DNA of 46,662 nt, counting the filler, from Sphacelaria rigidula (lineage: Eukaryota), in the NCBI GenBank assembly GCA_964200075.2. It is 2 parts of 2 records of this genome, joined end to end, with 100 filler letters (N's around TTAATTAATTAA, not from the genome) between each part and the next. Parts side by side here need not be neighbours in the genome. Positions count along the whole stretch, not along the records: positions 23,385 to 46,662 come from CAXNAA020000270.1; 1 more part is not named here. One strand, 5' to 3'. Both the position numbers and the translations under genes were made by a program. Position 1 is the first letter of the stretch. Every line of letters begins with the position of its first letter. The notes below the pieces were generated by a model. It ran no database searches. It saw only the letters and a program-made list of their open reading frames with translations, and was not told the DNA's origin. This document shows, in pieces, positions 23,285-46,662 of the stretch.

Positions 23285-23384
23285 NNNNNNNNNNNNNNNN
23301 NNNNNNNNNNNNNNNNNNNNNNNNNNNNTTAATTAATTAANNNNNNNNNNNNNNNNNNNNNNNNNNNNNNNNNNNNNNNNNNNN
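23285..23384. other. Artificial 100-bp scaffolding linker (N44-TTAATTAATTAA-N44)
   Basis: Exactly symmetric N runs around a 12-mer that gives stop codons in all six frames; total 100 bp. Confidence 0.92.
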
Positions 23385-23676
23385 TGACGTTCTCTTTCAA
23401 GAGTACAGGGAGGAGGGAACGAATCTGACGAATGATGACATGTGTCAATGGCAGGTTGTTAATTTCCGTGTTCAGCTCACGGAATATTTTGTTCCTAAGC
23501 CTACGGCGTCGAGCCTTACGTTTCACAGTCAGTCTCGTGCTTTTTTCCTGCTTCCACTTCTTCACCTTAAGTGTACGCTTGTACCCTATGTTCCTATCTC
23601 TCAGTCCTCCAACGAGTGTGGAAGAGAGCCCACGCCGATAGATACTCGTTACCTCTACCAGGGGATCTAAAAATCC
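23385..23676 (-). CDS. ORF2 N-terminus in the -1 frame of ORF1, open to the gap (putative pol/RT ORF)
   Basis: Opens immediately after a TAA at the slippery site and has no ATG. 97 stop-free codons: GFLDPLVEVTSIYRRGLSS...KVKKWKQEKSTRLTVKRKARRRRLRNKIFRELNTEINNLPLTHVIIRQIRSLLPVLLKENV. Confidence 0.6.
23610..23676 (-). promoter_or_regulatory. Programmed -1 ribosomal frameshift element (slippery heptamer plus three-stem pseudoknot)
   Basis: G_GAU_UUU (23676-23670) in ORF1 frame directly before UAG. 8-nt spacer. S1 CUGGUAGA/UCUAUCGG, S2 UAACGAGU/ACUCGUUG, S3 GUGGG/UCCAC. Confidence 0.8.
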
Positions 23677-24551
23677 TTACGGACTTTCTTCCGGGGGGCT
23701 GCGCGACCTGATTCGGTAGTACGCTTGGAAACGTTGGCCTGTTTCTCCTGTGTGACAGAAGAGTTACGTCTAGCAGTATTCCTACCCTGCAGGGGGGGTC
23801 CTTCATCTGCTGTCTGCTTGGGCTTCGGTTTACCTTTGCCTTTACTCTGCTGCTTATTGTTACTGGAAGTGGATGCGCGAACGTTGTGTCCCTTTTGGAA
23901 AGGGGTTTTACCCTTGGGAGGTTTACCAGGGCGTTTTTGGTGTTGTACAACGTTCTGGGAGTTGTTTCCCGGAGTGGTCTTGTTTCTGCCTCTTTTCAAG
24001 TTGCCTATGCTTTTCGATAGGGTTACTATTGAAGCATGCAGACACTCCGAGGACAACCCGCTATCCGTAGCAGCTACAGCCGCTTTGGCTCGTTTGTCAG
24101 CTTTAGCGGCAGCAGTTTTCTCCGTTCGAATGTGAAAATCCTCCTCTATCAAGAGTTTGACATCTTTCAATGTTTTTTGGATTTCCGCTATTTTCGGAGG
24201 GACTGCAGAGGGTGCAAACTCCGCCGGAGCGGCGGGCTGTGCAGGGGGTTGCGCAAGGGGTATGTTCTCCAACCCATCGGTGTGTGGGAGGTTCAATTGA
24301 AGTGAACCTGAGTCCACACTAGAATTTGCATCTTCTTCTACGTTCATAGCAGCTCCGCCGCCTTCATTAGATTGCGGTGAATCTGTCGGGGGTTCGGAGG
24401 GAGATGCAGTCGAACTATCTATTCCCAGGTACTGTTGTCTCCATTGTCTATACACACTGAGGTATTTCGAGCCGAATATGCCAACAGCTGTATCTACACG
24501 ACGTTGTTCAAGTAGGTTGATAAGAAAGGAGGGTGAGCTTCTGTATTTCAT
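23667..24551 (-). CDS. ORF1 of the element: basic, low-complexity gag-like/nucleic-acid-binding protein, C-terminal ~280 aa
   Basis: Stop-free 294 codons with a Pro/Ser-rich segment, a predicted helical segment (KIAEIQKTLKDVKLLIEE...AAAKADKRAKAA) and a Lys/Arg/Asn/Gln-rich tail. The first ~13 codons, including the ATG, come from the satellite. Confidence 0.65.
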   Translation of the reverse strand: MKYRSSPSFLINLLEQRRVDTAVGIFGSKYLSVYRQWRQQYLGIDSSTASPSEPPTDSPQSNEGGGAAMNVEEDANSSVDSGSLQLNLPHTDGLENIPLAQPPAQPAAPAEFAPSAVPPKIAEIQKTLKDVKLLIEEDFHIRTEKTAAAKADKRAKAAVAATDSGLSSECLHASIVTLSKSIGNLKRGRNKTTPGNNSQNVVQHQKRPGKPPKGKTPFQKGHNVRASTSSNNKQQSKGKGKPKPKQTADEGPPLQGRNTARRNSSVTQEKQANVSKRTTESGRAAPRKKVRKDF

Positions 24552-27500
24552 GTCTATATCCTGGCTGTGTTATAGTAGGTTGAATAAAAAGGAGGGTTAG
24601 CTTCTCTATTCCATGTCTTCAGCCGGACTGCGTTATAGTAGGTTGATAAGGAAGGAGGGTGAGCTTCTCTATTTCATGTCTATATCCGGGCTGTGTTTTG
24701 GTAGGTTGAATAAAAAGTCCGGTTAGATCCTCTATTCCATATTTTCATCCGGACTGCGTTACAGTAGGTTGATCAGGAAGGAGGGTGAGCTTCTTTATTT
24801 CATGTCTATATCCGGGCTGTGTTAGAGTAGGTTGAAAAAGTGGAGGGTGAGCTGCTCTATTCCATGTTAATATCCGGGCTGTGTTCTAGTAGGTTGAATA
24901 AACAGGAGGGTGAGCTTCTCTATTTCATGTCTATGTCCGGGCTGTGTTATAGTAGGTTGAATGAAAAGGAGGGTTACCTTCTCTATTTCAGGTCAATGTC
25001 TGGACTGTGTTATAGTAGGTTCAATGCAGAGGAGGATGAGCTTCTCTATTTCATGTCTATGTCCGGGCTGTGCTATAGTAGGTTGAATAAAATGGAGGGT
25101 GAGCTGCTCTATTCCATGTCTATCTCCGGGCTGTGTTAGAGTAGGTCCAAGAGGAAGTACGGTTAGCTGATCTATCTCGTGTCTATGTCCGGGCTGTGTT
25201 AGAGTAGGTGAAATAGAAAGCAGAGATAGCTACTCCATTTCATGTCTATCTTCGGGCTGTGTTATGGTAGGGTAAATATGAAGGAGGGTTAGCTTCTGTA
25301 TTTCATGTTTTCATCCGGACTGCGTTATAGTAGGTTGATAAGGAAGGAAGGTGAGCGTCTCTATTTCATGTCTATATCCGGGCTGTGTTATAGTAGGTGA
25401 AATAAAAAGTACGGTTAGCTTCTCTATTACATGTCCATATCCGGACTGCGTTACTGTAGGTTGATCAGGAAGGAGGGTCAGCTTCTCTATTTCATGTCTA
25501 TATCCGGGCTGTGTTATGGTAGGTTGGAAAAAAAGAAGGGTTAGCTGCTCTATTCCATGTATATATCCGGGCTGTGTTAGCGTAGGTCCAAAAGAAAGTA
25601 CGATTAGCTGCTCTATCTCGTGTCTATGTCCGGGCTGTGTTAGAGAAGGTGAAATATAAAGGAGAGGTAGCTACTCCATTTCATGTCTATGTCCGGGCTG
25701 TGTTATCGTAAGGCAAATAAAGATGAGGGTTAGCTTCTGCATTTCATGTTTTCATCCGGACTGCGTTATAGTAGGTTGATATGGAAGGAGGGTGAGCTTC
25801 TCTATTTCATGTCTATATCCGGGCTGTGTTATAGTAGGTTGAATAAAAAGGAGAGTTAGCTTTTCTATTCCAAATTCATATCCGGGCTGTTTGATAGTAG
25901 GTTGAATAAAGAGGAGAGTTAGCTTCTCTATTCCATATTTTCATCCGGACTGCGTTATAGCAGGTTGATGAGAAAGGAGGGTCAGCTTCTCTATTTCATG
26001 TCTATATCCGGACTGTGTTAGAGTAGGTTGGAAAAAAAAGAAGGGTTAGCTGCTACATTCCATGTATATATCCGGGCTGTGTTAGCGTAGGTCCAAAAGA
26101 AAGTACGATTAGCTGCTCTATCTCGTATCTATGTCCGGGCTGTGTTAGCGTAGGTGAAATATAAAGGAGAGGTAGCTACTCCATGTCATGTCTATGTCCG
26201 GGCTGTGTTATCGTAAGGCAAATAAAGATGAGGGTTAGCTTCTGTATCTCATGTTTTCATCCGGACTGCGTTATAGTAGGTTGATAAGGAAGGAGGGTGA
26301 GCTTCTCTATTTCATGTCTATATCCGGGCTGTGTTATAGTAGGTTGAATAAAAAGGAGAGTTAGCTTTTCTATTCCAAATTCATATCTGGGCTGTTTGAT
26401 AGTAGGTTGAATAAAGAGGAGAGTTAGCTTCTCTGTTCCATGTTTATATCCAAGCTGTTTGATAGTAGGTTGAATAAAAAGGAGGGTAAGCTTCTCTCCT
26501 TCATGTCTGTGTCCTGGCTGTGTTATAGTAGGTTGAATAAAATGGAGGGTGAGCTGCTCTATTCCATGTTATATCCAATCTATTTGATAGTAGGTTGAAT
26601 AAAAAGGAGGGTAAGCTTCTCTCCTTCATGTCTGTGTCCTGGCTGTGTTATAGTAGGTTAAATAAAAGGGAGGGTGAGCTGCTCTATTCCATGTCTATCT
26701 CCAGGCTGTGTTAGCGTAGGTCCAAGAAAATGTACGGTTAGCCGATCTATCTCGTGTCTATGTCCGGGCTGTGTTAGAGTAGGTGAAATAGAAAGGAGAG
26801 ATGGCTTCTTCATTCCATGTCTATCTCCGGGCTGTGTTATAGTAGGGTAAATAAAAAGGAGGGCTAGCTTCTGTATTTCATGTTTTCATCCGGACTGCGT
26901 TATAGTAGGTTGATAAGGAAGGAGGGTGAGCTTCTCTATTTCATGTCTATATCCGGGCTGTGTTATAGTAGTTTGAATGAAAAGTAGGGTTAGCTTCTCT
27001 ATTCCATATTTTCATCCGGACTGCGTTATAATAGGTTGAATAAAGAGGAGAGTTAGCTTCTCTATTCCATGTTTATATCCAAGCTGTTTGATGGTAGGTT
27101 GAATGAAAAGGAGGGTAAGCTTCTCTTTTTCATGTCCGTGTCCTGGCTGTGTCATAGTAGGTTGAATAAAGGGGAGGGTGAGCTGCTCCATTCCATGTCT
27201 ATCTCCGGGATGTGTTAGAGTGGGTCCAAAAAGATGTACGGTTAGCTGCTCTATCTCGTGTCTATGTCCGGGCTGTGTTAGAGTAGGTGAAATAGAAAGG
27301 AGAGATGGCTACTTCATTTCATGTCTATCTCCGGGCTGTGTTATCGTAGGGTAAATAAAAAGGAGGGTTAGCTTCTGTATTTCATGTTTTCATCCGGACT
27401 GCGTTATAATAGGTTTATAAGGAAGGAGGGTGAGCTTCTCTATTTCATGTCTATATCCGGGCTGTGCTATAGTAGTTTGAATGAAAAGGAGGGCTAGCTT

Positions 27501-30500
27501 CTCTATTCCATATTTTCATCCGGACTGCGTTATAGTAGGTTGATCAGAAAGGAGGGTGAGCATTTTTGTTTCATGTCTATGTCTGAGCTGTGTTTTAGAA
27601 GGGCAAAAAAGATGGTTAGCTTCTGTATTTCATGTGTTCATCCGGACTGCGTTATGGTAGGTTGATCAGGAAGGAGGGTGAGCTTCTTTATCTCATGTTT
27701 ATGTCCTGGCTGTGTTATAGTGGGTTGAATAAAAAGGAGGGTTAGCTTCTCTATTCCATGTCTTCAGCCGGACTGCGTTATAGTAGGTTGATAAGGAAGG
27801 AGGGTGAGCTTCTCTATTTCATGTCTATCTCCGGGCTGTGTTTTGGTAGGTTGAATAAAAAGTCCGGTTAGACCCTCTATTCCATGTTTTCATCCGGACT
27901 GCGTTATGGTAGGTTGATAAGGAAGGAGGGTGAGCTTCTTCATTTCATGTCGATATCCAGGCTGTGTTAGAGTAGGTTGAAAAAAGTGGAGGGTGAGCTG
28001 CTCTATTCCATGTTTATATCCGGGCTGTGTTCTAGTAGGTTGAATGAAAAGGGGGTTCAGCTTCTCTATCCCATGTTCATTTCTGGGCTGTGTTATAGTA
28101 GGTTCAATGCAGAGGAGGATGAGCTTCTCTATTTCATGTCTATGTCCGGGCTGTGCTACAGTAGGTTGAATAAAAGGGAGGGTGAGCTGCTCTATTCCAT
28201 NNNNNNNNNNNNNNNNNNNNNNNNNNNNNNNNNNNNNNNNNNNNNNNNNNNNNNNNNNNNNNNNNNNNNNNNNNNNNNNNNNNNNNNNNNNNNNNNNNNN
28301 NNNNNNNNNNNNNNNNNNNNNNNNNNNNNNNNNNNNNNNNNNNNNNNNNNNNNNNNNNNNNNNNNNNNNNNNNNNNNNNNNNNNNNNNNNNNNNNNNNNN
28401 NNNNNNNNNNNNNNNNNNNNNTATAGAAAGGAGAGATAGCTACTCCATTTCATGTCTATCTTCGGGCTGTGTTATAGTAGGGTAAATATGAAGGAGGGTT
28501 AGCTTCTGTATTTCATGTTTTCATCCGGACTGCGTTATAGTAGGTTGATAAGGAAGGAGGGTGAGCATTTTTGTTTCATGTCTATATCCGGGCTGTGTTA
28601 TAGCGGGTTGATTAAAAAAGAGGGTAAGCTTCTCTATTCCATGTCTAAATCCGGACTGTTTGATAGTAGGTTGAATAAAAAGGAGGGTAAGCTTCTGTAT
28701 TTCATGTCTGTGTCCTGGCTGTTTTATTGTAGGTTGAATATAATGAAGGGTGAGCTGCTCTATTCCATGTCTATCTCCGGGCTGCGCTTGAGTAGGTCCA
28801 AGAAAATGTACGGTTAGCTGATCTATCTCGTGTCTATGTCCGGGCTGTGTTAGAGTAGGTGATATAGAAAGGAGAGATGGCTACTTCATTTCATGTCTAT
28901 CTCCAGGCTGGGTTATAGTAGGGTAAGAAAAAAGAGGGTGAGCTTCTGTATTTCATGCTTTCATGCGGACTGAGTTATAGTAGGTTGGTAAGAAAGGAGG
29001 GTGAGCTTCTCTATTTCATGTCTATCTCCGGGCTGTGTTATAGTAGGTTGATCAGAAAGGAGGGTTAGCTTCTCTATTCCATGTGTTCATCCGGACTGTG
29101 TTATAGTAGGTTGATCAGAAGGGAGGGTGAGCATTTTTGTTTCATGTCTATGTCTGAGCTGTGTTTTAGTAGGGTAAAAAGGAGGGTTAGCTTCTGTATT
29201 TCATGTGTTCATCCGGACTGCGTTATAGTAGGTTGATAAGGAAGGAAGGTGAGCTTCTCTATTTCACGTCTATTTCTCTATTCCATGTTTTCATCCGGAC
29301 TGCGTTATAGTAGGTTGATCAGGAAGGAGGGTGAGCTTCTTTATTTCATGTCTATGTCCGGGCGGTGTTATAGTAGGTTGAATTACAAGGGGGTTCAACT
29401 TCTCTTTTCCATGTTTATACCCGGGCTGTGTTATAGTAGGTTGATCAGGAAGGAGGGTGAGCTTTTCTATTTCATGTCTATGTCCGGGCTGTGTTATGGT
29501 AGGTTGGAAAAAACGAAGGGTTAGCTGCTTTATTCCATGTATATACCCGGGCTGTGTTAGCGTAGGTTCAAGAGAAAGTACTGTTAGCCGCTCTATTTCG
29601 TGTCTATGTCCGGGCTGTGTTAGAGTAGGTGAAATAAAGAGGAGAGGTAGCTACTTAATTTCATGTCTATGTCCGGGCTGTGTTATCGTAAGGTAAATAA
29701 AGATGAGGGTTAGCTTCTGTATTTCATGTATTCATCCGGACTGCGTTGAAGTAGGTCGATAGGGAAGGAGGGCCAGCTTATTTATTTCATGTCTTTGTCC
29801 GGGCTGTGTTTTAGAGGGTTGAATGAAAAGGGGGTTCAGCTTCTCTATTCCATGTTTATATCCGGGCTGTTTGATGGTAAGTTGAATGAAGAGGAGGGTG
29901 AGCTTCTCTATTTCATGTCTGTGTCCTGGCAGTGTTATAGTTGGTTGAAAAAAACGAAGGGTGAGCTGCTCTATTTCATGTCTATCTCCGGGCTGTGTTA
30001 GCGTAGGTCCAAGAAAAAGTACGGGTAGCCGCTCTATCTCGTGTCTATGTCCGGGCTGTGTTAGAGTAGGTGATAAAAAAAGGAGAGGTAGCTACTCCAT
30101 TTCATGTCTATGTCCGGGCTGTGTTATCGTATGGTTGATAGAAAGGAAGGTTAGCTTCTGTATTTCATGTTTTCATCCGGACTGCGTTAAAGTAGGTTGA
30201 TAAGGAAGGAGGGTGAGCTTATTTATTCCGTCTATATCCGGGCTGTGTTTAAGTAGGTGAAATGAAAAGTACGGTTATCTTCTCTATTCCATGTCTATAT
30301 CCGGACTGCGTTATAGTAGATTGATCAGGAAGGAGGGTGAGCTTCTTCATTTCATGTCTATGTCCGGGCTGTGTTTTGGTAGGTTAAAAAAAAAGAAGGG
30401 TTAGCTGCTGCATTCCATGTATATACCCGGGCTGTGTTAGCGTCGGTTGGATTTAAAGTACGGTTAGCTGCTCTCTCTCGTGTGTATGTCCGGGCTGTGT

Positions 30501-33500
30501 TAGAGTAGGTGGAATAAAGAGGAGAGGTAGCTACTCCATTTCATGTCTATGTCCGGGCTGTGTTATGGTAGGGTAAAAAAGATGAGGGTTAGCTTCTGTA
30601 TTTCATGTTTTCATCCGGACTGCGTTAAAGTGGGTTGATAAGGAAGGAGGGCCACCTTATTTATTTCATGTCTATATCCGGGCTGTGTTATAGAAGGTTG
30701 AATGAAAAGGGGGTTCAGCTTCTCTATTCCATGTTCATATCCGGGCTGTTTGATGGTAAGTTGAATAAAGAGGAGGGTAAGCTTCTCTATTCCATGTCTG
30801 TGTCCTGGCAGTGTTATAGTAGGTTGAATAAAATGAAGGGTGAGCTACTCTATTTCATGTCTATCTCCGGGCTGTGTTGGAGTAGGTCCAAGAAAAAGTA
30901 CGGGTAGCTGCTTTATCTCATGTCTATGTCCGGGCTGTGTTAGAGTAGGTGAAAAAGAAAGGAGAGATAGCTACTCCATTTGATGTCTATAACCGGGCTG
31001 TGTGATGGTAGGTTTGATAGAAAGAAGGGTTAGCTTCTGTATTTCATGTTTTCATCCGGACTGCGTTACAGTAGGTTGTTAAGGAAGGAGGGTGAGCTTA
31101 TGTATTCCATGTGTATATCCGGGCCGTGTTAAAGTAGGTGAAATAAAAAGTACGGTTAGCTTCTCTATTTCATGTATATATCCGGGCTGTGTTAGCGTAG
31201 GTCCAAGAGAAAGAATGATCAGCTGCTCTCTCTCGTGTCTATGTCCGGGCTGTGTTAGAGTAGGTGAAATAGAAAGGAGAGGTAGCTACTCCATTTCATG
31301 TCTATGTCCGGGCTGTGTTATCGTAAGGTAAATATAGATGAGGGTTAGCTTCTGTATTTCATGTTTTTATCCGGACTGCGTTATAGTAAGTTGATAAGGA
31401 AGGAGGGTGAGCTTCTCTATTTCATGTTTATATCCGGGCTGTGTTATAGTAGGTTGAATGAAAAGAAGGGTTAGCTTCTCTTTTCCATTTGTTCATTCGG
31501 ACTGCGTTATAGAAGGTTGATCAGGAAGGAGGGTCAGCATTTTTGTTTCATGTCTATGTCTGAGCTGTGTTTTAGTAGGGAAAAAAGGAGGGTTAGCTTC
31601 TGTATTTCATGTGTTCATCCGGAATGCGTTATAGTAGGTTGATGAGGAAGGAGAGATAGCAACTTGATTTCATGTCTATATCCGGGCTGTGTTATAGTAG
31701 GTGAAATCAAAAGTACGGTAAGTTTCTTCATTTCATGTTTTCATCCGGACTGCGTTATAGTAGGTTGATCAGGAAGGAGGGTGAGCTTCTCTATTTCATG
31801 TCTATGTCCGGGCTGTGTTATGGTAGTTTCAAAAAAAAGAAGGGTTAGCTGCTCTCTTCCATGTATAGATCCGGGCTGTGTAAGAGTAGGTCCAAGACAA
31901 AGTACGAATAGCTGCTTTATCTCGTTTTTATGTCCGGGCTGCGTTAGAGTAGGTGAAATATAAAGGAGAGGTAGCTACTACATTTCATGTCTATGTCCGG
32001 GCTGTGTTATCGTAAGGTAAATATAGATGAGGGTTAGCTTCTGTATTTCATGTTTTCATCCGGACTGCGTTATAGTAGGTTGATAGGTAAGGAGGGTGTG
32101 CTTATTTTTTTCATGTCTTTATCCGGGCTGTGTTATAGTAGGTTGAATAAAAAGGAGGGTGAGCTTCTCTATTTCATGTCTATACCCGGGCTGTGTTATA
32201 GTAGGTTGATCGGGAAGGAGGGTCAGCATTTTCGTTTCATGTCTATGTCTGAGCTGTGTTTTAGTAGGGTAAATGGGAGGGTTAGCTTCTGTATTTCATA
32301 TGTTCATCCGGACTGCGTTATTGTAGGTTATTGAGAAAAGAGAGATAGCAACTTTATTTCATGCCTATATCCGGGCTGTGTTATGGTAGGTTCAAAAAAA
32401 AGAAGGGTTAGCTGCTCTCTTCCATGTATAGATCCGGGCTGTGTAAGAGTAGGTCCAAGACAAAGTACGAATAGCTGCTTTATCTTGTTTCTATGTCCGG
32501 GCTGCGTTAGAGTAGGTGAAATATAAAGGAGAGGTAGCTACTACATTTCATGTCTATGTCCGGGCTTTGTTATCGTAAGGTAAATATAGATGAGGGTTAG
32601 CTTCTGTATTTCATGTTTTCATCCGGACTGCGTTAGAGTAGGTTGATAGGTAAGGAGGGTGTGCTTATTTTTTTCATGTCTATATCCGGGCTGTGTTATA
32701 GTAGGTTGAATAAAAAGGAGGGTGAGCTTCTCTATTTCATGTCTATATCCGGGCTGTGTTATAGTAGGTTGATCGGGAAGGAGGGTGAGCATTTTCGTTT
32801 CATGTCTATGTCTGAGCTGTGTTTTAGTAGGGTAGAAGGGAGGGTTTGCTTCTGTATTTCATATGTTCATCCGGACTGCGTTATTGTAGGTTATTGAGAA
32901 GAGAGAGATAGCAACTTTATTTCATGTCTATATCCGGGCTGTGTTATGGTAGGTTCAAAAAAAAGAAGGGTGATCTTCTCTATTTCATGTCTATATCCGG
33001 GCTGTGTTATAGTAGGTTGATCGGGAAGGAGGGTGAGCATTTTCGTTTCATGTCTATGTCTGAGCTGTGTTTTAGTAGGGGTTAGCTTCTGTATTTCATG
33101 TTTTCATGCGGACTGCGTTATTGTAGGTTAATAGGGAAGGAGGATGAGCTTCTCTATTTCATGCCTATCTCCGGGCTGTGTTATAGTAGGTTGAATAAAA
33201 AGGAGGGTTAACTTCTCTATTCCATTTGTTCATCCGGACTGCGTTATAGTAGGTTGATCAGGAAGGAGGGTCAGCATTTTTGTTTCATGTCTATGTCTGA
33301 GCTGTGTTTTAGTAGGGTAAAAGGGAGGGTTAGCTTCTGTATTTCATGTGTTCATCCGGACTGCGTTATTGTAGGTTAATAGGGAAGGAGGATGAGCTTC
33401 TCTATTTCATGTCTATATCCGGGCTGTGTTATAGTAGGTTGAATGAAAAGGAGGGTTAGCTTCTCTATTCCATTTGTTCATCCGGACTGCGTTATAGTGG

Positions 33501-36500
33501 GTTGATCAGGAAGGAGGGTCAGCATTTTTGTTTCATGTCTATGTCTGAGCTGTGTTTTAGTAGGGAAAAAAGGAGGATTAGCTTCTGTATTTCATGTGTT
33601 CATCCGGAATGCGTTATAGTAGGTTGATGAGGAAGGAGAGATAGCAACTTCATTTCATGTCTATATCCGGGCTGGGTTATAGTAGGTGAAATCAAAAGTA
33701 CGGTAAGTTTCTCTATTCCATGTTTTCATCCGGACTGCGTTATAGTAGGTTGATGAGGAAGGAGGGTGAGCTTCTCTATTTCATGTCTATGTCCGGGCTG
33801 TGTTATGGTAGGTTCAAAAACAAGAAGGGTTAGCTGCTCTCTTCCATGTATAAATCCGGGCTGTGTAGGAGTGGGTCCAAGACAAAGTACGAATAGCTGC
33901 TCTATCTCGTTTCTATGTCCGGGCTGCGTTAGAGTAGGTGAAATATATAGGAGAGGTAGCTACTCCATTTCATGTCTATGTCCGGGCTGTGTTATCGTAA
34001 GGTAAATATAGATGAGGGTTAGCTTCTGTATTTCATGTCTATATCCGGGCTGTGTTATAGTAGGTTGAATAAACAGGAGGGTGAGCTTCTCTATTTCATG
34101 TCTATATCCGGGCTGTGTTATAGTAGGTTGCATAAAAAGGGAGATGAGCTTCTCTATTCCATGTGTTCATCCGGACTGCGTTATAGTAGGTTGATCAAGA
34201 AGGAGGGTGAGCATTTTTGTTTCATGTCTATGTCTGAGCTGTGTTATAGTAGGGTAAAAAGGAGGGTTAGCTTCTGTATTTCATGTGTTCATCCGGACTG
34301 CGTTATTGTAGGTTAATGAGAAAAGAGAGATAGCAACTTTATTTCATGTCTATATCCGGGCTGTGTTATAGTAGGTGAGACAAAACGTCCGGGTAGATTC
34401 TCTATTCCATGTCTATATCCGGACTGCGTCATTGTAGGTTGATCAGGAGGGACCGTGAGCTTATCTATTTCATGTCTATGTCCGGGCTGTGTTATGGTAG
34501 GTTGAAAAAATACAAGGGTTAGCTGCTCTATTCCATGTATATATCCGGGCTGTGTTAGCGTAGGTCCAAAAGAAAGTACGATTAGCTGCTTCATCTCGTG
34601 TCTATGTCCGGGCTGTGTTAGAGTAGGTGAGATAGAAAGGAGAGGTAGCTCCTCCACTTCATGTCTATGTCCGGGCTGTGTTATCGTAAGGTAAATATAG
34701 ATGAGGGTTAGCTTCTGTATTTCATGTTTTCATCCGGACTGCGTTATAGTAGGTTGATAGGGATGGAGGGTGAGCTTATTTATTTCATGTCTATATCCGG
34801 GCTGTGTTATAGTAGGTTGAATAAAAAATACGGTTAGCTTATCTATTCCATGTTTATATCCGGGCTGTTCGATAGTAAGTTGAATAAAGAGGAGGGTAAG
34901 CTTCTCTTTTTTATGTCTGTGCCCTGGCTGTGTCATGGTAGGTTGAATATAATGGAGGGTGAGCTGCTCTATTCCATGTCTATCTCCAGGCTGCGCTAGA
35001 GTAGGTCCAACAAAAAGGACGGTTAGCTGCTCTATCTCGTGTCTAAGTCCGGGCTGTGTTGAAGTAGGTGATAAAAAAAGGAGAGATGGCTACTTCATTT
35101 CATGTTTATCTCCGGGCTGTGTTACAGTAGGGTGAAAAAAAAGGAGGGTTAGCTTCTGCATTTCATGTTTTTATCCGAACTGCGTTGTAGTAGGTTGATA
35201 AGAAAGGAGGGCGAGCTTCTGTATTTTATGTCTAAATCTGGGCTGTGTTTTATTTGGGTGAAAAAAATAGAGGGTAAGCTCCTGTATTTCATGTATTCAT
35301 CCGGACTGCGATATAGTAGGTTGATAAGAAAGGAGGGTGAGCTTCTCTATTTCATGTCTATATCCGGGCTGTGTTATAGTAGGTTGAATAAAAAGTCCGG
35401 GTAGATTCTCTATTCCATGTTTTCATCCGGACTGCGTTATAGTACGTTGATCAGGAAGGAGGGTGAGCTTCTCTATTTCATGTCTATATAAAAGCTGTGT
35501 TAGAGTAGGTTATAAACAGTCGAGGGTGAGCTGCTCTATTCCATGTCAATATCCGGGCTGTGTTCTAGTAGGTTGAATAAAGAGGAGGGTGAGCTTCTCT
35601 ATCACATGTCTATGTCCGGGCGGTGTTATGGTAGGTTGAATGAGGAGGAGGTTCATCTTCTCTATTCCATAGTTATACCCGGGCTGTGTTACAGTAGGTT
35701 GATCAGGAAGGAGGGTGAGCTTCTCTATTTCATGTCTATGTCCGGGCTGTGGTATAGTAGGTTGAATAAAAGTGAGGGTGAGCTGCTCTATTCCATGTCT
35801 ATCTCCGGGCTGTGTTAGAGAATGTCCAAGAGAAAGTACGGTTAGCTGCTCTATCTCGTGTCTATGTCCGGGCTGTGTTAGAGGAGGTGAAATAGAAAGG
35901 AGAGATAGCTACTCCATTTCATGTCTATAACCGGGCTGTGTTATAGTAGGGTCAATATGAAGGAGGGTTAGCTTCTGTATTTCATGTTTTCATCCGGACT
36001 GCGTTGAAGTAGGTTGATAAGAAAGGAGGGTGAGCTTTTGTATATCATGTCTGTATCCGGGCTGTGTTATAAGAGGTTGAATAAAAAGTACGGTTAGCTT
36101 CTTTATTTCTTGTCTATATCCGGGCTGTGTTATGGTAGGTTGAAAAAAAAGAAGGGTTAGCTGCTCTATTCCATGTATATATCCGGGCTGTGTTAGCGTA
36201 GGTCCAAGAGAAAGTACGATTAGCTGGTCTATCTTGTGTCTATGTCCGGGCTGTGTTAGAGTAGGTGAAAAAGAAAGGGGAGATGGCTACTCCATTCCAT
36301 GTTTATAACAGGGCTGTGTTTCAGTAGGGTAAATATGAAGGAGGGTTAGCTTCTGTATTTCATGTTTTATCCGGACTGCGTTATAGTAGGTTGATAAGAA
36401 AGGAGGGTGAGCTTATATATTTCAAGTCTACATCCGGGCTGTGTTAAAGTAGGTTGAAATAAAAGTACGGTTAGCTTCTCTATTCTATGTTTATATCCGG

Positions 36501-39500
36501 ACTGCGTTATAGTAGGTTGATCAGGGAGGAGGGTGAGCTTCTCTATTTCATGTTGATATCCGGGCTGTGTTATGGTAGGTTGAAAAATAAAAAGGGCTAG
36601 CTGCTCTTTTCCATGTATATATCCGGGCTGTGTTAGCGTAGGTCCAAGAGAAAGTACGATTAGCTGCTCTATCTCGTGTTTATGTCCGGGCTGTGTTAGA
36701 GTAGGTGAAATAGAAAGGAGAGGTAGCTCCTCCACTTCATGTTTATGTCCGGGCTGTGTCATCGTAAAGTAAATATAGATGAGGGTTAGTTTCTGTATTT
36801 CATGTTTTCATCCGGACTGGGTTAAAGTAGGTGGATAAGGAAGGAGGGTGAGCTTATTTACTTCATGTCTATATCCGGGCTGTGTTATAGTAGGTTGAAT
36901 GAAAAGTACAGTGAGCTTATCTATTCCATCTTTATATCCGGGCTGTTTGATAGTAAGTTGAATAGAGACGAGGGTAAGCTTCTCTATTTCGTGTCTGTGT
37001 CCTGGCTGTGTTATAATAGCTTGAATAAAGAGGAGGGTGAGCTTCTCTATGTCATGTCTATGTCCGGGCGGTGTTTTAGTAGAATGAATTAAAAGAAGGT
37101 TCAGCTTCTCTATTCCATGTTTATACCCCGGCTGTATTATAGTAGGTTGATCAGGAAGGAGGGTGAGCTTCTCTATTTCATGTCTATATCCGGGCTGTGG
37201 TATAGTAGGTTGAATAAAAGGGAGGGTTAGCGTCTCTATTCCATGTATATATCCGGGCTGTGTTACCGTAGGTCCGAGAGAAAGTACGATTAGCTGCTCT
37301 ATCTCGTGTCTATGTCCGGGCTGTGTTAGAGTAGGTGAAATAGAAAGGAGAGGTAGCTACTCCATTTAATGTCTATCTCCGGGTTGTGTTATAGTAGGGT
37401 GAAAAAAAAGGAGGGTTAGCTTCTGTATTCCATGTTTTCATACGAACTGCCTTATAGTAGGTTGATAAGAAAGGAGGGTGAGCTTCTCTATTTCATGTCT
37501 ATATCCGGGCTGTGTTATAGTAGGGTGAGAAAAAGGAGGGTAAGCTTCTGTATTTCATGTTTTCTTCCGGGCTGCGATAGAGTAGGCTGATAAGAAAGGA
37601 GGGTGAGCTTCTGTATTTCATGTCTACATCCGGGCTGTGTTATAGTAGGTTGAATGAAAAGTCCGGGTAGATTCTCTATTCCATGTTTTCATCCGGACTG
37701 CGTTATAGTAGGTTAATGAGGAAGGAGGGTGAGCTTTTATATTTCATGTCTATATCCGGGCTGTGTTTTAGTACGTTGAATAAAGAGGAGGGTGAGCTTC
37801 TCTATTTCATGTCTATGTCCGGGCGGTGTTATAGTAGGTTGAATGAAGAGGAGGTTCAGCTTCTCTATTCCATGTTTATACCCGGGCGGTGTTATAGTAG
37901 GTTGATCAAGAAGGAGGGTGAGCTTCTCTATTTCATGTCTATGTCTGGGCTGTGGTATAGTAGGTTGAATAAAAGGGAGGGTGAGCTGCTCTATTTCATG
38001 TCTATTTCCGGGCTGTGTTAGAGTATGTCCAAGGGAAAGTACGGTTAGCTGCTTTATCTCGTGTCTATGTCCGGGCTGTGTTAGAATAGGTGAAATAAAA
38101 AGGAGAGATAGCTACTCCATTTCAGGTCTACAATCGGGCTGTGTTATAGTAGGGTAAATATGAAGGAGGGTTAGCTCGTGTATTTCATGTTTTCATCCGG
38201 GCTGTGTGATCAGAGGTGAAATAAAAAGTACGGTTAGCTTCATTATTTCATGTCTATATCCGGGCTGTGTTATAGTAGGTTGAATCAAAAGGAAGGTTAG
38301 CTTTTCTGTTCCATGTTTTCATCGGGACTGCTTTATAGTAGATTGATCAGGAAGGAGGGTGAGCTTCTCTATTTCATGTCTATATCCGGGCTGTGTTGTG
38401 GTAGGATGAAAAAAAAAAGGGTGAGCTGCTCAAATCCATGTCCATCTCCGGGCTGTGTTAAAGTAGGTCCAAGAGAAAGTACGGTTAGCTGCTCTATCTC
38501 GTGTCTATGTCCGGGGCTGTGTTAGAGTAGGTGAAATAGAAAGGAGAGATAGCTACTCCATTTCAAGTCTATAACCGGGCTGTGTTATAGTAGGGTAAAT
38601 ATGAAGGAGGGTTAGCTTTTGTATCTCATGTTTTCATCAGGACTGCGTTATAGTAGGTTGATAAGAAAGGAGGGTGAGCTTATTTATTTCATGCCTATAT
38701 CCGGGATGTGTTATAGTAGATGAAAAGAAAGGGAGGGTTATCTTCTCTATTTCATGTCTATATCCGGGCTGTGTTATAGTAGGTTGAATAAAAAGTACGG
38801 TTAGCTTCTCTATTCCATGTTTTCATCCGGGCTGCTTTATAGTAGGTTGATCAGGAAGGAGGGTTAGCATTTTTGTTTCTTGTCTATATCCGGGCTGTGT
38901 TATGGCAGGTTGAAAAAAAAAAGGGTTAGCTGCTCTATTCCATGTATATTTCCGGGCTGTGTCAGCGTAGGTCCAAGAGAAAATACGATTAGCTGCTCTA
39001 TCTCGTGTCTATGTCCGGGCTGTGTTAGAGTAGGTGAAATAGAATTTAGAGGTAGCTACTCCATTTCATGTCTATGTCCGGGCGGTGTTATTGTAAGTTG
39101 AATATAGATGAGGGTTAGCTTCTGTATTTCATGTTTTCATCCGGACTGCGTTATAATAGGTTGATAAGGGAGGAGGGTGAGCTTATTTATTTCATGCCTA
39201 TATCCGGGATGTGTTATAGTAGGTTGAATGAAAAGTACGGTTAGCTTATCTATTCCATGTTTATATCCGGGCTGTTTGATAGTAAGTTGGATAGAGACGA
39301 GGGAAAGCTTCTCTATTTCATGTCTGTGTTCTGGCTGTGTTATAGTAGGTTGAATATCATGGAGGGTAAGCTTCTCTATTCCATGTCTATCTCCAGGTTG
39401 CGCTACAGTAGGTCCAAGAAAAAAGACGGTTAGCTGCTCTATCTCGTGTCTATGTCCGGGCTGTGTTAGAGTAGGTGATATAAAAAGGGGGGATGGCTAC

Positions 39501-42500
39501 TTCATTTCATTTCCATCTCCAGGCTGGGTTATAGTAGGGTGAATGAAGAGGAGGGTTAGCTTCTGTATTTCATGTTTTCATCCGGACTACGGTAATGGTA
39601 GGTTGATGAGAAAGGAGGGTGAGCTTCTCTTTTTCATGTCTATATCCGGGCTGTGTTATAGTAGGTTGAATACAAAGGAGGGTTAGGTTCTTTATTCCAT
39701 GTGTTCTTCCGGACTGCGTTTAAGTAGGTTGATCAGGAAGGAGGGTGAGCATTTTTGTTTCATGTCTATGTCTGAGCTCTGTATCAGTAGGGTAAAAGGA
39801 GGGTTAGCTCCTGTATTTTATGTTTTCATCCGGACTGCGATATAGTAGGTTGATAACAAAGGAGGGTGAGCTTCTATATTCCATGTCTATATCCGGGCTG
39901 TGTTATAGTAGGTTGAATAAAGAGGAGGGTAAGCTTCTCTATTTCATGTCTATGTCCGGGCGGTGTTATAGTAGGTTGAATGAAAAGGGAGTTCGGCTTC
40001 TCTATTCCATGTATATACCCGGGCTGTGTTATAGTAGGTTCAATGCAGAGGAGGGTGAAGTTCTCTATTCCATGTCTATGTCCGGGCTGTGGTATAGTAG
40101 GTTGAATCAAAGGGAGGGTGAGCTGCTCTATTCCATGTCTATCTCCGGGCTGTGTTAGAGTATGTCCAAGAGAAAGTACGGTTAACTGCTCTATCTTGTG
40201 TCTATGTTCGGGCTGTGTTAGAGTAGGTGACATAAAAAGAAGAGATAGCTACTCCATTTCATGTCTATCTCCGGGCTGTGTTATAGTAGGTGAAATAGAA
40301 AGTACGGTTAGCTTCTTTATTGCATGTCTATATCCGGGCTGTTTGATAGTAGGTTCAATAAAGAGGAGGGTAAGCTTCTCTATTTCATGTCTGTGTTCTG
40401 GCTGTGTCATAGTAGGTGGAATATAATGGAGGGTGAGCTGCTCTGTTCCAAGTCTATCTCCGGGCTGTGTTAGAGTATGTCCAAGAGAAAGTACGGTTAA
40501 CTGCTCTATCTTGTGTATATGTTCGGGCTGTGTTAGAGTAGGTGAAATAAAAAGAAGAGATAGCTACTCCATTTCATGTCTATAACCGGGCTGTGTTATA
40601 GTAGGGTAAATATGAAGGAGGGTTGGCTTCTGTATGTTATGTTTTCTTCCGGACTGCGTTATAGTAGGTTAATAAGGAAGGAGAGATAGCAACTTCATTT
40701 CATGTCTATATCCGGGCTGTGTTATACTAGGTGAAATAGGAAGTACGGGTAGCTTCTTTATTGCATGTTCATATCCGGGCTGTGTTATGAAAGGTTGATC
40801 AGGAAGGAGAGTGAGCTTCTCTATTTCATGTCTATATCCGGGCTGTGTTATGGTAGGTTGAAAAAAAAAAAGGGTTAGCTGCTCTATTCCATGTATATAT
40901 CCGGGCTGGGTTGTAGTAGGTGAAATAGAAAGGAGAGGTAGCTACTTTATTTCATGTCTATGTCCGGGCTGTGTGATCGTAAGGTAAATATAGATGAGGG
41001 TTTGCTTCTGTGTTTCATGTTTTCATCCAGACTGCGGTAAAGTAGGTTGATAAGGAAGGAGGGTGAGCTTCTCTATTTCATGTCTATATCCGGGCTGTGC
41101 TATAGTAGGTTGAGTAAAAAGGAGGGTTAGCTTCTCTATTCCATGTTTATCTCAGGGCTATTTGATAGTGAGTTGAGAACAGACGAGGGTAAGCTTACCT
41201 ATTTCATGTCTGTGTCCTGGCTGTGTTATGGTAGGTTGAATATAATGGAGGGTGAGCTGCTCTGTTCCATGTCTACCTCCGGGCTGCGCTAGAGTAGGTC
41301 CAAGAAAAGAGACGGTTAGCTGCTTTTTCTCGTGTCTATGTCCGGGCTGTGTTAGAGTAGGTGATATAAAAAGGAGAGATGGCTACTTCATTTCATGTCT
41401 ATCTCCGGGCTGTGTTATAGTAGGGGAAATAAAACGCAGGGTTACTTCTGTATTTCATGTTTTCATCCGGACTGCGTTGTAGTAGGCTGATCAGGAAGGA
41501 GGGTGACCTTCTCTATTTCATGTCTATATCCGGGCTGTGTTAGAGTAGGTTGAATAAAAAGGAGGGTTAACTTCTCTATTCCATGTTTATATCCGGGCTG
41601 TGTTAGAGTAGGTCCAAGAGAAAGTACGATGAGCTGCTCTATCTCGTGTCTATGTCCGGGCTGTGTTAGAGTAGGTGAAATAGAACGGAGAGATAGCTAC
41701 TCGATTCCATGTCTATGTCCGGGCTGTGTTATCGTAAGGTAAATACAGATGAGCGTTAGCTTCTGTATTTCATGTTTTCAATCGGACTGCGTTATAGTAG
41801 GTTGATAAGGAAGGAGGGTGAGCTTCTCTATTTCATGTCTATATCCGGTCTGTGTTATAGTAGGTGAAATAAAAAGTACGGTTAGCTTCTCCATTTCATG
41901 TCTATATCCGGACTGCGTTATAGTTGGTTGATCAGGAAGGAGGGTGAGCTTCTCGATTTCATCTCTATGTCCGGGCTATGTTATGGTAGGTTGAAAAAAA
42001 CGAAGGGTTAGCTGCTCTATTCCATGTACATATTCGGGCTGTGTTAGCGTAGGTCCAAGAGAAAGTACGATTAGCTGGTCTATCTCGTGTCTATGTCCGG
42101 GCTGTGTTAGAGTAGGTGAAATGAAGAGGAGAGGTAGCTAATCTATGTCATGTCTATGTCCGGGCTGTGTTATCGTAAGGTAAATATGAAGGAGGGTTAG
42201 CTTCTGTATTTCATGTTTTCATCCGGACTGCGTTAAAGTAGGTTGATAAGGAAGGAGGGCCAGCTTATTTATTTCATGTCTATATCCGGGCTTTGTTATA
42301 GTAGGTTGAATGAAAAGGGTTAGCGTCTCTATTCCATGTTTATATCCGGGCTGTTTGATAGTGAGTTGAATAAAGAGGAGGGTAAGCTTCTCTATTTCAT
42401 GTCTGCGTTCTGGCTGTGTTATAGTAGGATGAATAAAATGGAGGGTGAGCTGCTCTATTTCATGTCTGTCTCCGGGCTGTGCTAGAGTAGGTCCAAGAAA

Positions 42501-45500
42501 AAGTACGGTTAGCTGCTCTATCTCGTGTCTATGTCCGGGCTGTGTTAGAGTAGGTGAAATAGAAAGGAGAGATAGCTACTCCATTTCATGTCTATCTCCG
42601 GGCTGTGTTATAGTAGGGAAAATAAGAAGGAGGGTTAGCTTCTGTATTTCATATTTTCATCCGGACTGCGTTATAGGAGGTTGATCAGGAAGGAGGGTGA
42701 GCTCTATTGTTTCATGTCTATGTCTGAGCTGTGTTTTAGTAGGGTAAAAAGGAGCGTTAGCTTCTGTATTTCATGTATTCATCCGGACTGCGTTATAGTA
42801 GGTTAATGAAGAAGGGTGAGCTTCTCTATTTCATGTTTATGTCCGGGCTGTTTGATAGTAGGTTATATGAAAAGTCCGGTTAGATTCTCTATTCTACTTT
42901 TTCATCCGGACTGCGTTATAGTAGGTTGATCAGGAAGGAGGGCGAGCTTTTTTTTTCATGTTTATATCCGGGCTGTATTAGAGTAGGTTGAAAAAAATGG
43001 AGGGTGAGCTGCTCTATTCCATGATTATATCCGGGCGGTGTTATGGTAGGTTGAAAAAAAAGGAGGTTGAGCTTCTTCATTTCATGTCTATGTCCGGGCT
43101 GTGCTATAGTAGGTTGAATGAAAAGGGGGTTCAGCTTCTCTATTCCATGTTTATATCCGGGCTGTGTTATAGTAGGTTCAATGCAGAGGAGGGTGAGCTT
43201 CTCTATTTCATGTCTATGTCCTGGCTGTGTTATCGTAGGTTGAATGAAAGGGAGGGTGAGCTGCTCTTTTCCATGTCTACTCCGGGCTGTGTTAGAGTAG
43301 GTCCAAAAAAAAGTACGGTTGGCTGCTCTATCTCGTGTCTATGTCCGGGCTGTGTTAGAGTAGGTGAAATACAAAGGAGAGATAGCTACTTCATTTCATG
43401 TCTATAACCGGGCTGTGTTATGGTAGGGTTAATATAAAGGAGGGTTAGCTTCTGTATTTCATATTTTCATCCGGACTGCGTTGAAGCAGGTTGATAAGAA
43501 AGGGGGGTGCGCTTCTCTATTTCATGTCTATGTCTGGGCTGTGATATAGTAGGTTGAAAAAAAAGGAGGGTTTGCTTCTCTATTTCATGTTCATATCCGG
43601 ACTGCGTTATAGTAGGTTGATCAGGAAGGAGGGTAAGCATTTTTGTTCCATGTCTATGTCTGAGCTGTGTCTTAGTAGGGTAAAAGGGAGGGTTAGCTTT
43701 TGTATTTCATGTGTTCATCCGGACTGCGTTATAGTAGGTTGATAAGGAAGGAGGGTCAGCTTCTCTATTTCATGTCTATATCCGGGCTGTGTTATAGTAG
43801 GTTGAATAAAAGGTGGGGTTAGCTTCTCTATTCCATGTTTTCATCCGAACTTCGTTATTGTAGGTTGATCAGGAAAGAGGGTGAGCATTTTTGTTTCATG
43901 TCTATGTCTGAGCTGTGTCTTAGTAGGGTAAAAAGGAGGGTTAGCTTCTGTATTTCATGGGTTCATCCGGACTGCGTTATAGTAGGTTGATAAGGAAAGA
44001 GGGTGAGCTTCTCTATTCCATGTCTATATCCGGGCTGTGCTATCGTAAGGTTAGTATAGATGAGGGTTAGCTTCTGTATTCCATGTTTTCATCCGGACTG
44101 CGTTGAAGTAGGTTGATAAGAAAGGAGGGTGAGCTTCTCTGTTTCATGTCTATATCCGGGGTATGTTATAGTAGGTTCAAAAAAAAGTACGGTTAGCTCC
44201 TCTATTCCATGTTTTCATCCGGACTGCGTTATAGTGATTGATCAGGAAGGAGGGTGAGCATTCTTGTTTCATGTCTATGTTTGGGCTGTGTTATAGTAGG
44301 TTGAATCAAAAGTCCGGGTAGATTCTCTATTCCATGTTTATATCCGGATTGCGTTACAGTAGGTTGATCAGGAAGAAGGGTGAGCTTCTATATTTCATGT
44401 TTTTATCCGGGCTGTGTTAAAGTAGGTTAAAAAAAAAGGAGGGTGTGCTGCTCTATTCCATGTTCACATCCGGGCTGTGTTATAGAAGGTTGAATAAAGA
44501 GGAGGGTGAGCTTCTATATTTCATGTCTATGTTCGGGCTTTGTTATAGTAGGATGAATGACAAAGGGGTTCAGCTTCTCTATTCCATGTTTATATCCGGG
44601 CTGTGTTATAGTAGTTTGAATAAAAGGGACGGTGAGCTGCTCTTTTCAATGTTTATATCCGGGCTGTATTAGAGTAGGTCCAAGAGAAAGTACGGTTAGC
44701 TGCTCTTTCTCGTGTCTATGTCCGGGCTGTGTTAAAGTAGATGAAATAGAAAGGAGAGATGGCTACTTCATTTCATGTCTAAAAGCGGGCTGTGTTATGG
44801 TAGAGTAAATATAAAGGAGGGTAAGCAACTGTATTTCATGTTTTCATCCGGACTGCGTTATAGTAGGTTGATAAGAAAGGAGGGTGAGCTTCTCTATTTC
44901 ATGTCTATATCCGGGCTATGTTATAGTAGGTAACAAAAAAAGGACGGTTAGCTTCTCTATTCCATGTTTATATCCGGACTGCGTTATAGTAGGTTGATCA
45001 CGAAGGAGGGTGAGCTTCTCTATTTCATGTCTATATCCGGGCTATGTTATAGTAGGTTAAAAAAAAAAGTACGGTTAGCTCCTCTATTCCATGTTTATAT
45101 CCGGACTGCGTTATAGTAGATTGATACGGAAGGGGGGTGAGCTTCTCCATTTCATGTCTATATCCGGGCTGTGTTATAGTAGGTTGAATGAAAAGTAGGG
45201 TTAGCTTCTCTATTCCATGTTTTCATCCGGACTGCGTTAGTGTAGGTTGATCACGAAGGAGGGTGAGCTTATTCATTTCAGGTCTATATCCTGGCTATGT
45301 TATAGTAGGTTGAATAAAAAGGAGGGTTAACTTCTCTATTCCATGTTTTCATCCGGATTGCGTTATAGTAGGTTGATCAGGAAGGAGGGTGAGCATTCTT
45401 GTTTCATGCCTATGTCTGGGCTGTGTTATAGTAGGTTGAATCAAAAGTCCGGGTAGATTCTCTATACCATGTTTTCATCCGGATTGCGTTACAGTAGGTT

Positions 45501-46662
45501 GATCAGGAAGGAGGGTGAGCTTTTCTATTTCATGTTTATATCCGGGCTGTGTTAGAGTAGGTTGAAAAAAATGGAGGGTGTGCTGCTCTATTCCATGTTC
45601 ATATCCGGGCTGTGTTATAGAAGGTTGAATAAAGAGGAGGGTGAGCTTCTATATTTCATGTCTATGTCCGGGCTTTGTTATAGTAGGTTGAATAAAAAGG
45701 GGTTCAGCTTCTCTATTTCATGTGTATATCCGGGCTGTGTTATAGTAGGTTCAATGCAGAGGAGGGTGAGCTTCTCTATTTCATGTCTATGTCCGAGCTG
45801 TGTTATAGTAGTTTGAATAAAAGGGAGGGTGAGCTGCTCTTTTCAATGTCTATCTCCGGGCTGTGTTAGAGTAGGTCCAAGAGAAAGTACGGTTAGCTGC
45901 TCTATCTCGTGTCTATGTCCGGGCTGTGTTAAAGTAGATGAAATAGAAAGGAGAGATGGCTACTTCATTTCATGTCTAAAACCGGGCTGTGTTATGGTAG
46001 AGTAAATATAAAGGAGGGTTAGCAACTGTATTTCATGTTTTCATCCGGACTGCGTTGAAGTAGGTTGATGAGAAAGGAGGGTGAGCTTCTCTATTTCATG
46101 TCTATATCCGGGCTATGTTATAGTAGGTAAAAAAAAGGTACGGTTAGCTTCTCTATTTCCATGTTTTAATCCGGACTGCGTTATTGTAGGTTGATCACGA
46201 AGGAGGGTGAGGTCATTTATTTCATGTCTATATCCTGGCTATGTTATAGTAGGTTGAATATAATGGAGGGTTAGCTTCTCTATTCCATGTTTATATCCGG
46301 ACTGCGTTATAGTAGATTGATACGGAAGGAGGGTGAGCTTCTCTATTTCATGTCTATATCCGGGCTGTCTTAGAGTAGGTAAAATAAAAAGTACCGTTAG
46401 CTTCTCTATTCCATGTTTATATCCGGACTGCGTTATAGTAGGTTGATCAGGAAGGAGGGTGGGCTTTTTTTTTTCATGTCCATATCCGGGCTGTGTTATA
46501 GTAGGTTGAAAAAAATGAAGGTTTAGCGGCTTTATTCGATGTTTACATCCGGGCTGTGTTATAGTAGGTTGAATAAAGAGGAGGGTGAGTTTCTCTATTT
46601 CATGTCTATGTCCTGGCTGTGTTATGGTAGGTTGAATAAAAGGGAGGGTGAGCTGCTCTATT
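24511..46662 (+). repeat. 63-bp tandem satellite array (>22 kb, ~350 monomers) with higher-order structure; extends beyond window
   Basis: Representative monomer TAGTAGGTTGATAAGGAAGGAGGGTGAGCTTCTCTATTTCATGTCTATATCCGGGCTGTGTTA (63 bp), head-to-tail in one orientation, with several recurring subtypes and one ~59-bp subtype. Confidence 0.97.
28201..28421. other. Assembly gap (221 N) inside the satellite
   Basis: N run flanked by satellite monomers on both sides. Confidence 0.97.

Follow-up and report, generated by a model that had tools for sequence, protein, structure and literature searches.

On the minus strand of a contig from the Sphacelaria rigidula assembly GCA_964200075.2, a long open reading frame (ORF1) ends at a UAG codon that directly follows the heptamer G_GAU_UUU, and a second frame (ORF2) opens at the same heptamer in the -1 register. 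This arrangement raises the question of whether the two frames are joined by programmed -1 ribosomal frameshifting, as an earlier sequence-only reading had proposed, or by some other route. The window (the whole stretch of DNA analysed, 46,662 nucleotides) consists of contig A (1-23284) and contig B (23385-46662; CAXNAA020000270.1) joined by an artificial linker, which has a six-frame-stop design and lies between two unrelated contigs. Any reading across 23285-23384 is an assembly artefact, and contigs A and B need not adjoin in the genome; as the apparent gap is an artificial joint, the truncation of ORF2 there is a matter of assembly and not of biology.

Contig A has about 50% G+C and resembles ordinary eukaryotic DNA. 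Exons of an IF2-like translational GTPase were recognized on its plus strand at 13388-15978 (GHFNHGKTTILDAL..., AGGITQ... and FLDTPGQE...). Their boundaries are of the GT-AG type, the donors reading GTGAG and an acceptor CAG, and one of the introns spans about 1.87 kb; these exons and their boundaries indicate that the assembly derives from an intron-rich eukaryote. Contig B, followed along its minus strand, begins with a satellite array that extends past the window edge and carries an N gap at 28201-28421, and then continues as 1.1 kb of unique sequence, which holds the slip site and reaches the contig end. Satellite units show 72% matches and a strong strand asymmetry, with a GC skew of about +0.3 on the plus strand. 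On the minus strand most units read ATGAAATAG, while the last reads ATGAAATAC, which opens ORF1 into the array. The first ATG of ORF1 sits in this last unit and the next in-frame ATG is codon 69. Within the window no further copies of the element were found, only satellite, of which the last repeat alone overlaps the start of ORF1, and no tRNAs were found. Coordinates of all features are collected in Table 1.

Table 1. Positions of observed, predicted and candidate features in the window.
Feature	Position	Strand	Basis
Artificial contig joint, N44 + TTAATTAATTAA + N44	23285..23384	.	N runs
-1 frame (ORF2), 97 open codons, no AUG	23386..23676	-	ends at contig end
Candidate 74-nt GT-AG intron, TCC/GTAAGG ... 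CUCUCUUCCACACUCGUUGGAG/GAC	23607..23680	-	donor/acceptor scan
Predicted S2, 3' arm	23610..23617	-	stem finder, energies
Predicted S3 hairpin, GUGGG-CUCUCU-UCCAC	23618..23633	-	energies; closing G-C becomes G-U in one other copy
Predicted S1, 3' arm	23635..23642	-	stem finder, energies
Predicted S2, 5' arm, within the S1 loop	23644..23651	-	stem finder, energies
Predicted S1, 5' arm	23654..23661	-	stem finder, energies
ORF1 stop UAG, directly after the heptamer	23667..23669	-	sequence
ORF1, 294 codons, ends KDF-UAG	23667..24551	-	0 stops in 278 unique codons
Slip heptamer G_GAU_UUU, ORF1 frame	23670..23676	-	sequence; same heptamer functional in PEMV RNA2 (PMC4737148)
UAA stop of the -1 frame, just ahead of the heptamer; replaced by UGA in a single other copy	23677..23679	-	sequence; contigs
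Hyper-abundant module inside ORF1 (helical part)	23988..24220	-	depth in public runs; similarity to P0002
63-bp satellite array, about 352 copies	24511..46662	.	Tandem Repeats Finder; immediately precedes ORF1 when the minus strand is read

The exchange of frames at the end of ORF1 is clean. ORF1 ends AAG GAU UUU UAG, and the -1 frame reads CCG UAA GGA UUU UUA GAU across the same bases. Having run without a stop through its unique codons, the ORF1 frame contains 11 stops in the following 97; the -1 frame contains 20 stops upstream of the slip site and none downstream. Overlap of the two ORFs is therefore restricted to the heptamer. The earlier description of the ORF1 end, of the UAA in the -1 frame and of the 97 open, AUG-less codons was correct to the base. 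The heptamer as such is not over-represented: GGATTTT occurs seven times in the window against 8.0 expected. Two further explanations were considered and dropped, namely reassignment of UAG, since all three stop codons are present in the 0 frame downstream, and transcriptional slippage, for which a run of five T's is short.

Downstream of the heptamer, a stem finder returned the S1, S2 and S3 pairings that had been described from the sequence, all with valid energies. S1 comprises 8 bp, two of them G-U, and follows an 8-nt spacer; L1 is GG, S2 has 8 bp with one G-U pair, and L2 is a single nucleotide. S3 (23633-23629 with 23622-23618) has 5 bp, with one nucleotide before it and none after. The base of S1 is weak if left as drawn, and three further G-C pairs can be added to it (CCC 23664-23662 with GGG 23631-23629), which would shorten the spacer to 5 nt. 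This extension takes the G's of S3 and so excludes it. Because such nested alternatives exist, the three-stem, coronavirus-type structure proposed earlier is one of two equally plausible drawings. The likeness to the coronavirus pseudoknot is one of topology, the long loop holding a third stem beside S1 and S2; here, in contrast, S3 is only 5 bp and optional, competing with the 3-bp extension of S1, and the slip site, stem lengths and sequence all differ.

We searched for pseudoknots made of two contiguous stems of at least 5 bp in H-type order, allowing a spacer of 5-9 nt, an L1 of 1-8, an L2 of 0-3 and an L3 of at least 2. When the 80 nt downstream were shuffled with dinucleotides preserved, 7 of 1000 sequences contained a structure at least as stable as the S1+S2 pseudoknot; of 4220 natural 80-nt windows taken from contig A, 12 contained one with a spacer of 5-9 nt. 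Among the seven GGATTTT sites in the window, only the one at the end of ORF1 is followed by a qualifying pseudoknot. The nested fold of the 101-nt region, on the other hand, is ordinary (z = -0.57). A rough pseudoknot energy of about -19 kcal/mol, obtained from the stem energies and a penalty of 9 kcal/mol, is better than what these 52 nt reach in a nested fold (-12.6) but only ties with nested folds that recruit flanking bases (-15.8 to -19.2). A competing hairpin is also found downstream. In a minimum-free-energy fold, GAAAGUCC pairs with GGAUUUUU (23667-23688, minus strand), so that the 3' arm of a small upstream hairpin would contain the slip site; modulation of frameshifting by hairpins upstream of the site is described for BYDV, PEMV and SARS-CoV (PMC5009743, PMC4737148). 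Rfam returned no frameshift element for the whole window at the gathering threshold, nor for 23385-23800 at E values up to 10, where three rows at chance level were the only output.

Other copies of the element were sought in public sequencing runs by aligning Logan contigs of runs X1, X2, X6 and X8 to 23385-24520 at a likeness of at least 85%. X2 repeats X1 number for number. Differences were tabulated from 5% of depth upwards, so that copies with six T's below 5% would go unlisted. Four distinct contigs, from three studies (P1, P2 and P3), span the slip site: records 2 and 3 of X1, record 17 of X6 and record 26 of X8, differing from the window at 3, 15, 8 and 3 letters, respectively. A 497-nt contig of X6 extends 165 nt past the contig end. 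The run of five T's is present without an indel in all four listed spanning contigs (share of at least 5%), and since these come from three studies the five-T state is not a private indel of the window copy. A search for copies with both ORFs in one frame, which the earlier reading had named as a check on itself, found none at this share. Of the features of the -1 frameshift class, an in-frame slippery heptamer, a -1 frame open without AUG up to the contig end and conservation of this arrangement in other copies are present.

Substitutions were scored for 40 of the 87 reported differences, 33 of them in ORF1 and 7 in ORF2. Among the differences listed, those in ORF1 comprise 14 synonymous and 19 non-synonymous changes, compared with 4 and 29 or 11 and 22 when the other two frames are read; none of the 33 creates a stop codon, and many replacements are conservative. 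Base composition predicts about 4.7% stops per codon, and their complete absence from the unique codons indicates that ORF1 is not a chance reading frame. ORF1 behaves as coding sequence. Its product has a low-complexity N-terminal part, helices at about residues 119-188 and a Lys/Arg-rich tail; a single-sequence AF2 model is mostly disordered with two helices (pLDDT 52). Only one listed substitution falls within the 52-nt structure, at 23618, where it converts the closing G-C pair of S3 to G-U, and another, at 23678, changes the UAA of the -1 frame to UGA. Both are compatible with a frameshift signal and neither is compensatory.

It is also possible, although rather unlikely in our estimate, that the locus is a decayed element: an ancestral single ORF would have lost one T (TTTTTT to TTTTT), and the damaged copy would have been multiplied passively, for example together with the satellite, with no recoding involved. 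The T run is the only place where a 1-nt deletion yields the observed frame pattern, the region is rich in satellite, and one copy carries a further 2-nt deletion. This deletion, at 23602 in the most diverged contig, breaks the ORF2 frame and is the sole row of the indel table, which is not exhaustive, as pieces outside the junction show alignment gaps that have no row. Decay would also fit with ORF2 lacking a coding signature, both in its seven listed substitutions and in a codon-position score, and with the middle of ORF1 being a hyper-abundant module with different flanks in other copies (see below). Against decay, no contig with six T's occurs at a share of at least 5% in four runs from three studies, a copy that is about 8% diverged included; the 391 codons of the window copy contain no other stops or shifts; and the pseudoknot would have to be a coincidence. 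As for the earlier suggestion of a recently active element, the intact frames and copies that are 92-98% alike are compatible with it, and go no further than that.

The proposal that ORF1 and ORF2 are expressed as a fusion by recoding holds up insofar as every sequence feature of a -1 cassette is present, with a pseudoknot rarer than chance, but it had overlooked a GT-AG intron that could join the same frames. By that account a short spliceosomal intron would connect ORF1 to ORF2, and the slip site and apparent pseudoknot would be intron sequence. The candidate donor, TCC/GTAAGG at 23680, matches the consensus, contains the UAA of the -1 frame and shares bases with the slip site; no other GTRAG donor lies close to the end of ORF1. 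In-phase AG acceptors lie 14, 26 and 74 nt downstream, and all three junctions are free of stops. The acceptors at 14 and 26 nt are less plausible, and introns this short would be smaller than introns usually get; the 74-nt version has its in-phase acceptor at 23607/23606, preceded by a good pyrimidine tract, CUCUCUUCCACACUC. An in-frame stop comes soon after the donor, as it commonly does in introns, and contig A has introns of canonical type (donors GTGAG, acceptor CAG). The variants in other copies are likewise tolerated, as the change at 23678 gives GTGAGG, still a consensus donor, and that at 23618 leaves the tract pyrimidine. Splicing, however, would leave as coincidences an in-frame heptamer of proven function, a pseudoknot as rare as the one described above (7 in 1000 shuffled sequences, 12 in 4220 natural windows), and the openness of the -1 frame across the entire intron. 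The one contig A intron mapped at both ends is, at about 1.87 kb, 25 times longer than 74 nt. A spliced joint was absent from the aligned contigs, a weak argument given that the type of run is not on record; no RNA run was listed as containing the stretch, and the unspliced contigs of X1 and X2 were left out of the evidence. In addition, an efficiently spliced intron would be lost by a retroelement. We regard the intron as unlikely.

A third possibility, which we consider quite unlikely, is that ORF1 simply ends at its UAG, the open frame downstream being due to chance or translated separately without frameshifting, for example by termination-reinitiation, as at LINE-1 ORF2. In contig A about 4% of positions (1901 of 45982) have at least 97 open codons ahead, and 65 of 1584 stop-to-stop ORFs reach this length. 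The chance-level frequency of the heptamer in the window would fit as well, and so would ORF2 itself, for which we found neither a homologue nor a coding signature. Its listed substitutions comprise three synonymous and four non-synonymous changes (seven among the differences listed). A codon-position model trained on ORF1 gave ORF2 a log-likelihood ratio of -9.8, equal to the null mean, and its codon-position composition is unlike that of ORF1; a single-sequence AF2 model of the 97 residues shows two long basic helices (pLDDT 83) and is uninformative for assigning a fold. Set against a plain end of ORF1 is the coincidence of three independent rare features, namely the open frame (about 0.01-0.04), a proven heptamer, in frame, that coincides with the final two sense codons, and the pseudoknot (about 0.003-0.007), together with the lack of any AUG in 97 codons.

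Searches for relatives of the two proteins returned a single match. ORF2, in its 97 codons up to the contig end, had none among 1.84 billion representatives. In a 5.8-billion word index, ORF1 gave nothing at near and longer lengths and only P0002, a 144-aa metagenomic fragment, at shorter lengths. Scans for the ORF1 + ORF2 locus in metagenome_contigs, viral_contigs and genome_contigs gave no confirmed relatives, and neither protein was matched in the ESM Atlas or in PDB sequences. Pfam at E values up to 1 assigned no family to ORF1 or to the 97 aa of ORF2, and was equally empty for plus-strand ORFs and for P0002. ORF1 showed no similarity to viral accessory proteins, as judged by Pfam, by the lack of a relative in viral_contigs and by P0002 being its sole match.

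P0002 bears on what kind of sequence ORF1 is. It is 82% identical to ORF1 over residues 133-188 and diverges from ORF1 after aa 188; its tail has no match in the window. In the public runs, uncalibrated depth over positions 23988-24220 is 100-500 times that of the flanks, with a summed k-mer depth of about 1e5 (X6) and 6e5 (X8) as compared with 2e2 to 1e3 over the slip site and ORF2. Loose ends are found at 23941 and 24147-24154, and most copies of the abundant segment have other flanks than here. Because the P0002 match coincides with the jump in depth, the middle of ORF1 is best described as a hyper-abundant module that has other flanks elsewhere. The ORF1 tail, slip site and ORF2 belong to a much rarer variant. 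The module could be either a satellite in its own right or a derivative that is non-autonomous. The repeated element as a whole is unclassified; a mobile element and an insert of viral origin are both possible.

Within this module, ORF1 contains another in-frame G_GAU_UUU (24135-24141, minus strand; E-D-F of LIEEDFHI). It has no qualifying pseudoknot downstream and is lost in the abundant family, where CTA replaces TTT, and it offers a useful internal negative control. This second heptamer, a chance occurrence, was counted among the points against frameshifting, along with the lack of an ORF2 homologue and the codon-position composition of ORF2, which is unlike that of ORF1.

Taking these points together, we put at about even the chance that the junction is a programmed -1 frameshift cassette in the style of dianthoviruses, umbraviruses and unirnaviruses, lodged in an unclassified repeat. 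On arrival at G_GAU_UUU, ribosomes translating ORF1 would hold tRNA-Asp in the P site and tRNA-Phe in the A site, and an RNA structure beginning 5-8 nt downstream would resist unwinding; in the predicted form, S1 and the loop pairing S2 would make up an H-type pseudoknot carrying either S3 or the G-C extension of S1. Some ribosomes would then slip back by one base. In the A site re-pairing would be perfect, from UUU to UUU, while the P site would shift from GAU to GGA with one Watson-Crick pair retained. Slipped ribosomes would continue through UUA GAU CCC to give an ORF1-ORF2 fusion (...RKDF-LDPLVE...), whereas most ribosomes, not having slipped, would stop translation at the UAG that follows. 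Observation covers the sequence pattern, how seldom it arises by chance and five T's as the majority state of other copies; beyond this we infer a coding ORF2, a folded RNA structure and ribosomal slippage.

The closest parallels are found in the Tombusviridae and luteoviruses (RCNMV, PEMV RNA2 and BYDV), which use an identical G_GAU_UUU heptamer (PMC4737148, PMC5009743); the statement that dianthoviruses employ this slip site is confirmed by the same sources. In PEMV RNA2 it induces eukaryotic ribosomes to shift into the -1 frame, and perfect re-pairing is limited to the A-site tRNA (PMC4737148). RCNMV, BYDV and GRV have a stop directly after the heptamer and a stimulator starting about 5 nt downstream (PMC4737148). 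Here, too, the amber stop follows directly, as it does in RCNMV, BYDV and GRV, the interval in PEMV being 3 nt (PMC4737148); the predicted structure would likewise begin about 5 nt downstream if S1 is extended, and only the A site would re-pair perfectly. The stimulators of these viruses, in contrast, are described as bulged stem-loops that depend on pairing with a site in the 3' end about 4 kb away (PMC4737148, PMC5009743), whereas the pseudoknot predicted here is local. Their downstream ORF encodes an RdRp, unlike the 97 codons found here, which have no match and are cut at the contig end. They are, moreover, RNA viruses, whereas this element is assembled, multi-copy DNA beside a satellite, with no sequence similarity to them found.

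The dsRNA mycoviruses grouped as 'Unirnaviridae' resemble the locus in layout. They have an ORF1 of about 300 aa, in their case of unknown function with a predicted coiled coil, and two ORFs termed 'non-overlapping', of which ORF2 has no independent expression (PMC7290986). In Fusarium culmorum virus 1 (FcV1), ORF1 encodes 314 aa, with G_GAU_UUU at 950-956 and the end of ORF1 at 959, and an endogenous copy of a unirnavirus ORF1 is known in a yeast (PMC7290986). Unlike these viruses, the present element has an ORF1 similar to one metagenomic fragment only, is multi-copy and contains a helical module that is hyper-abundant.

In the gag-pol arrangement of retroviruses and LTR retrotransposons, a basic upstream protein is followed by a -1 shift into a long frame without AUG. 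The basic ORF1 product, the AUG-less -1 frame and a predicted H-type pseudoknot 5-8 nt after the heptamer all conform to it (PMC5009743). The label 'gag-pol-like', which the sequence-only reading had attached to the element, is nevertheless unsupported, as no family or homologue was found for ORF1 or for the 97 codons of ORF2. The ORF1 translation contains no Cys-His knuckles; Pfam, the translation and the AF2 model revealed no gag-like capsid or zinc-knuckle domain in ORF1, and Pfam detected neither a gag or zinc-knuckle nor a protease or RT signature in ORF1 or the 97-aa part of ORF2. Also unlike gag-pol, the heptamer does not conform to X_XXY_YYZ, we see no LTR or other terminal structure, and 22 kb of satellite occupy the 5' side.

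Tombus-, luteo- and unirna-like viruses express their polymerase from G_GAU_UUU-UAG (PMC4737148, PMC7290986). The cassette might belong to an endogenous, multiplied descendant of an RNA virus of one of these kinds, or to a mobile element of an entirely new class, encoding orphan proteins, that took up a virus-style cassette. In either case it would reside in the nuclear DNA of an alga-associated eukaryote, beside a satellite derived from its own 5' end. We consider such an origin improbable.

That viruses and mobile elements link two ORFs by -1 frameshifting is textbook knowledge, so no new principle is involved, and everything beyond the sequence pattern is inferred. If real, the compact 52-nt pseudoknot would offer itself for mechanistic work. 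Within the literature cited, the G_GAU_UUU-stop cassette is described for RNA viruses only (PMC5009743, PMC4737148, PMC7290986), and a limited full-text literature search found no report of a G_GAU_UUU cassette in a retrotransposon or transposable element. If the proposed frameshifting is true, a multi-copy element of a cellular genome, with orphan proteins, would join the users of this non-canonical cassette.
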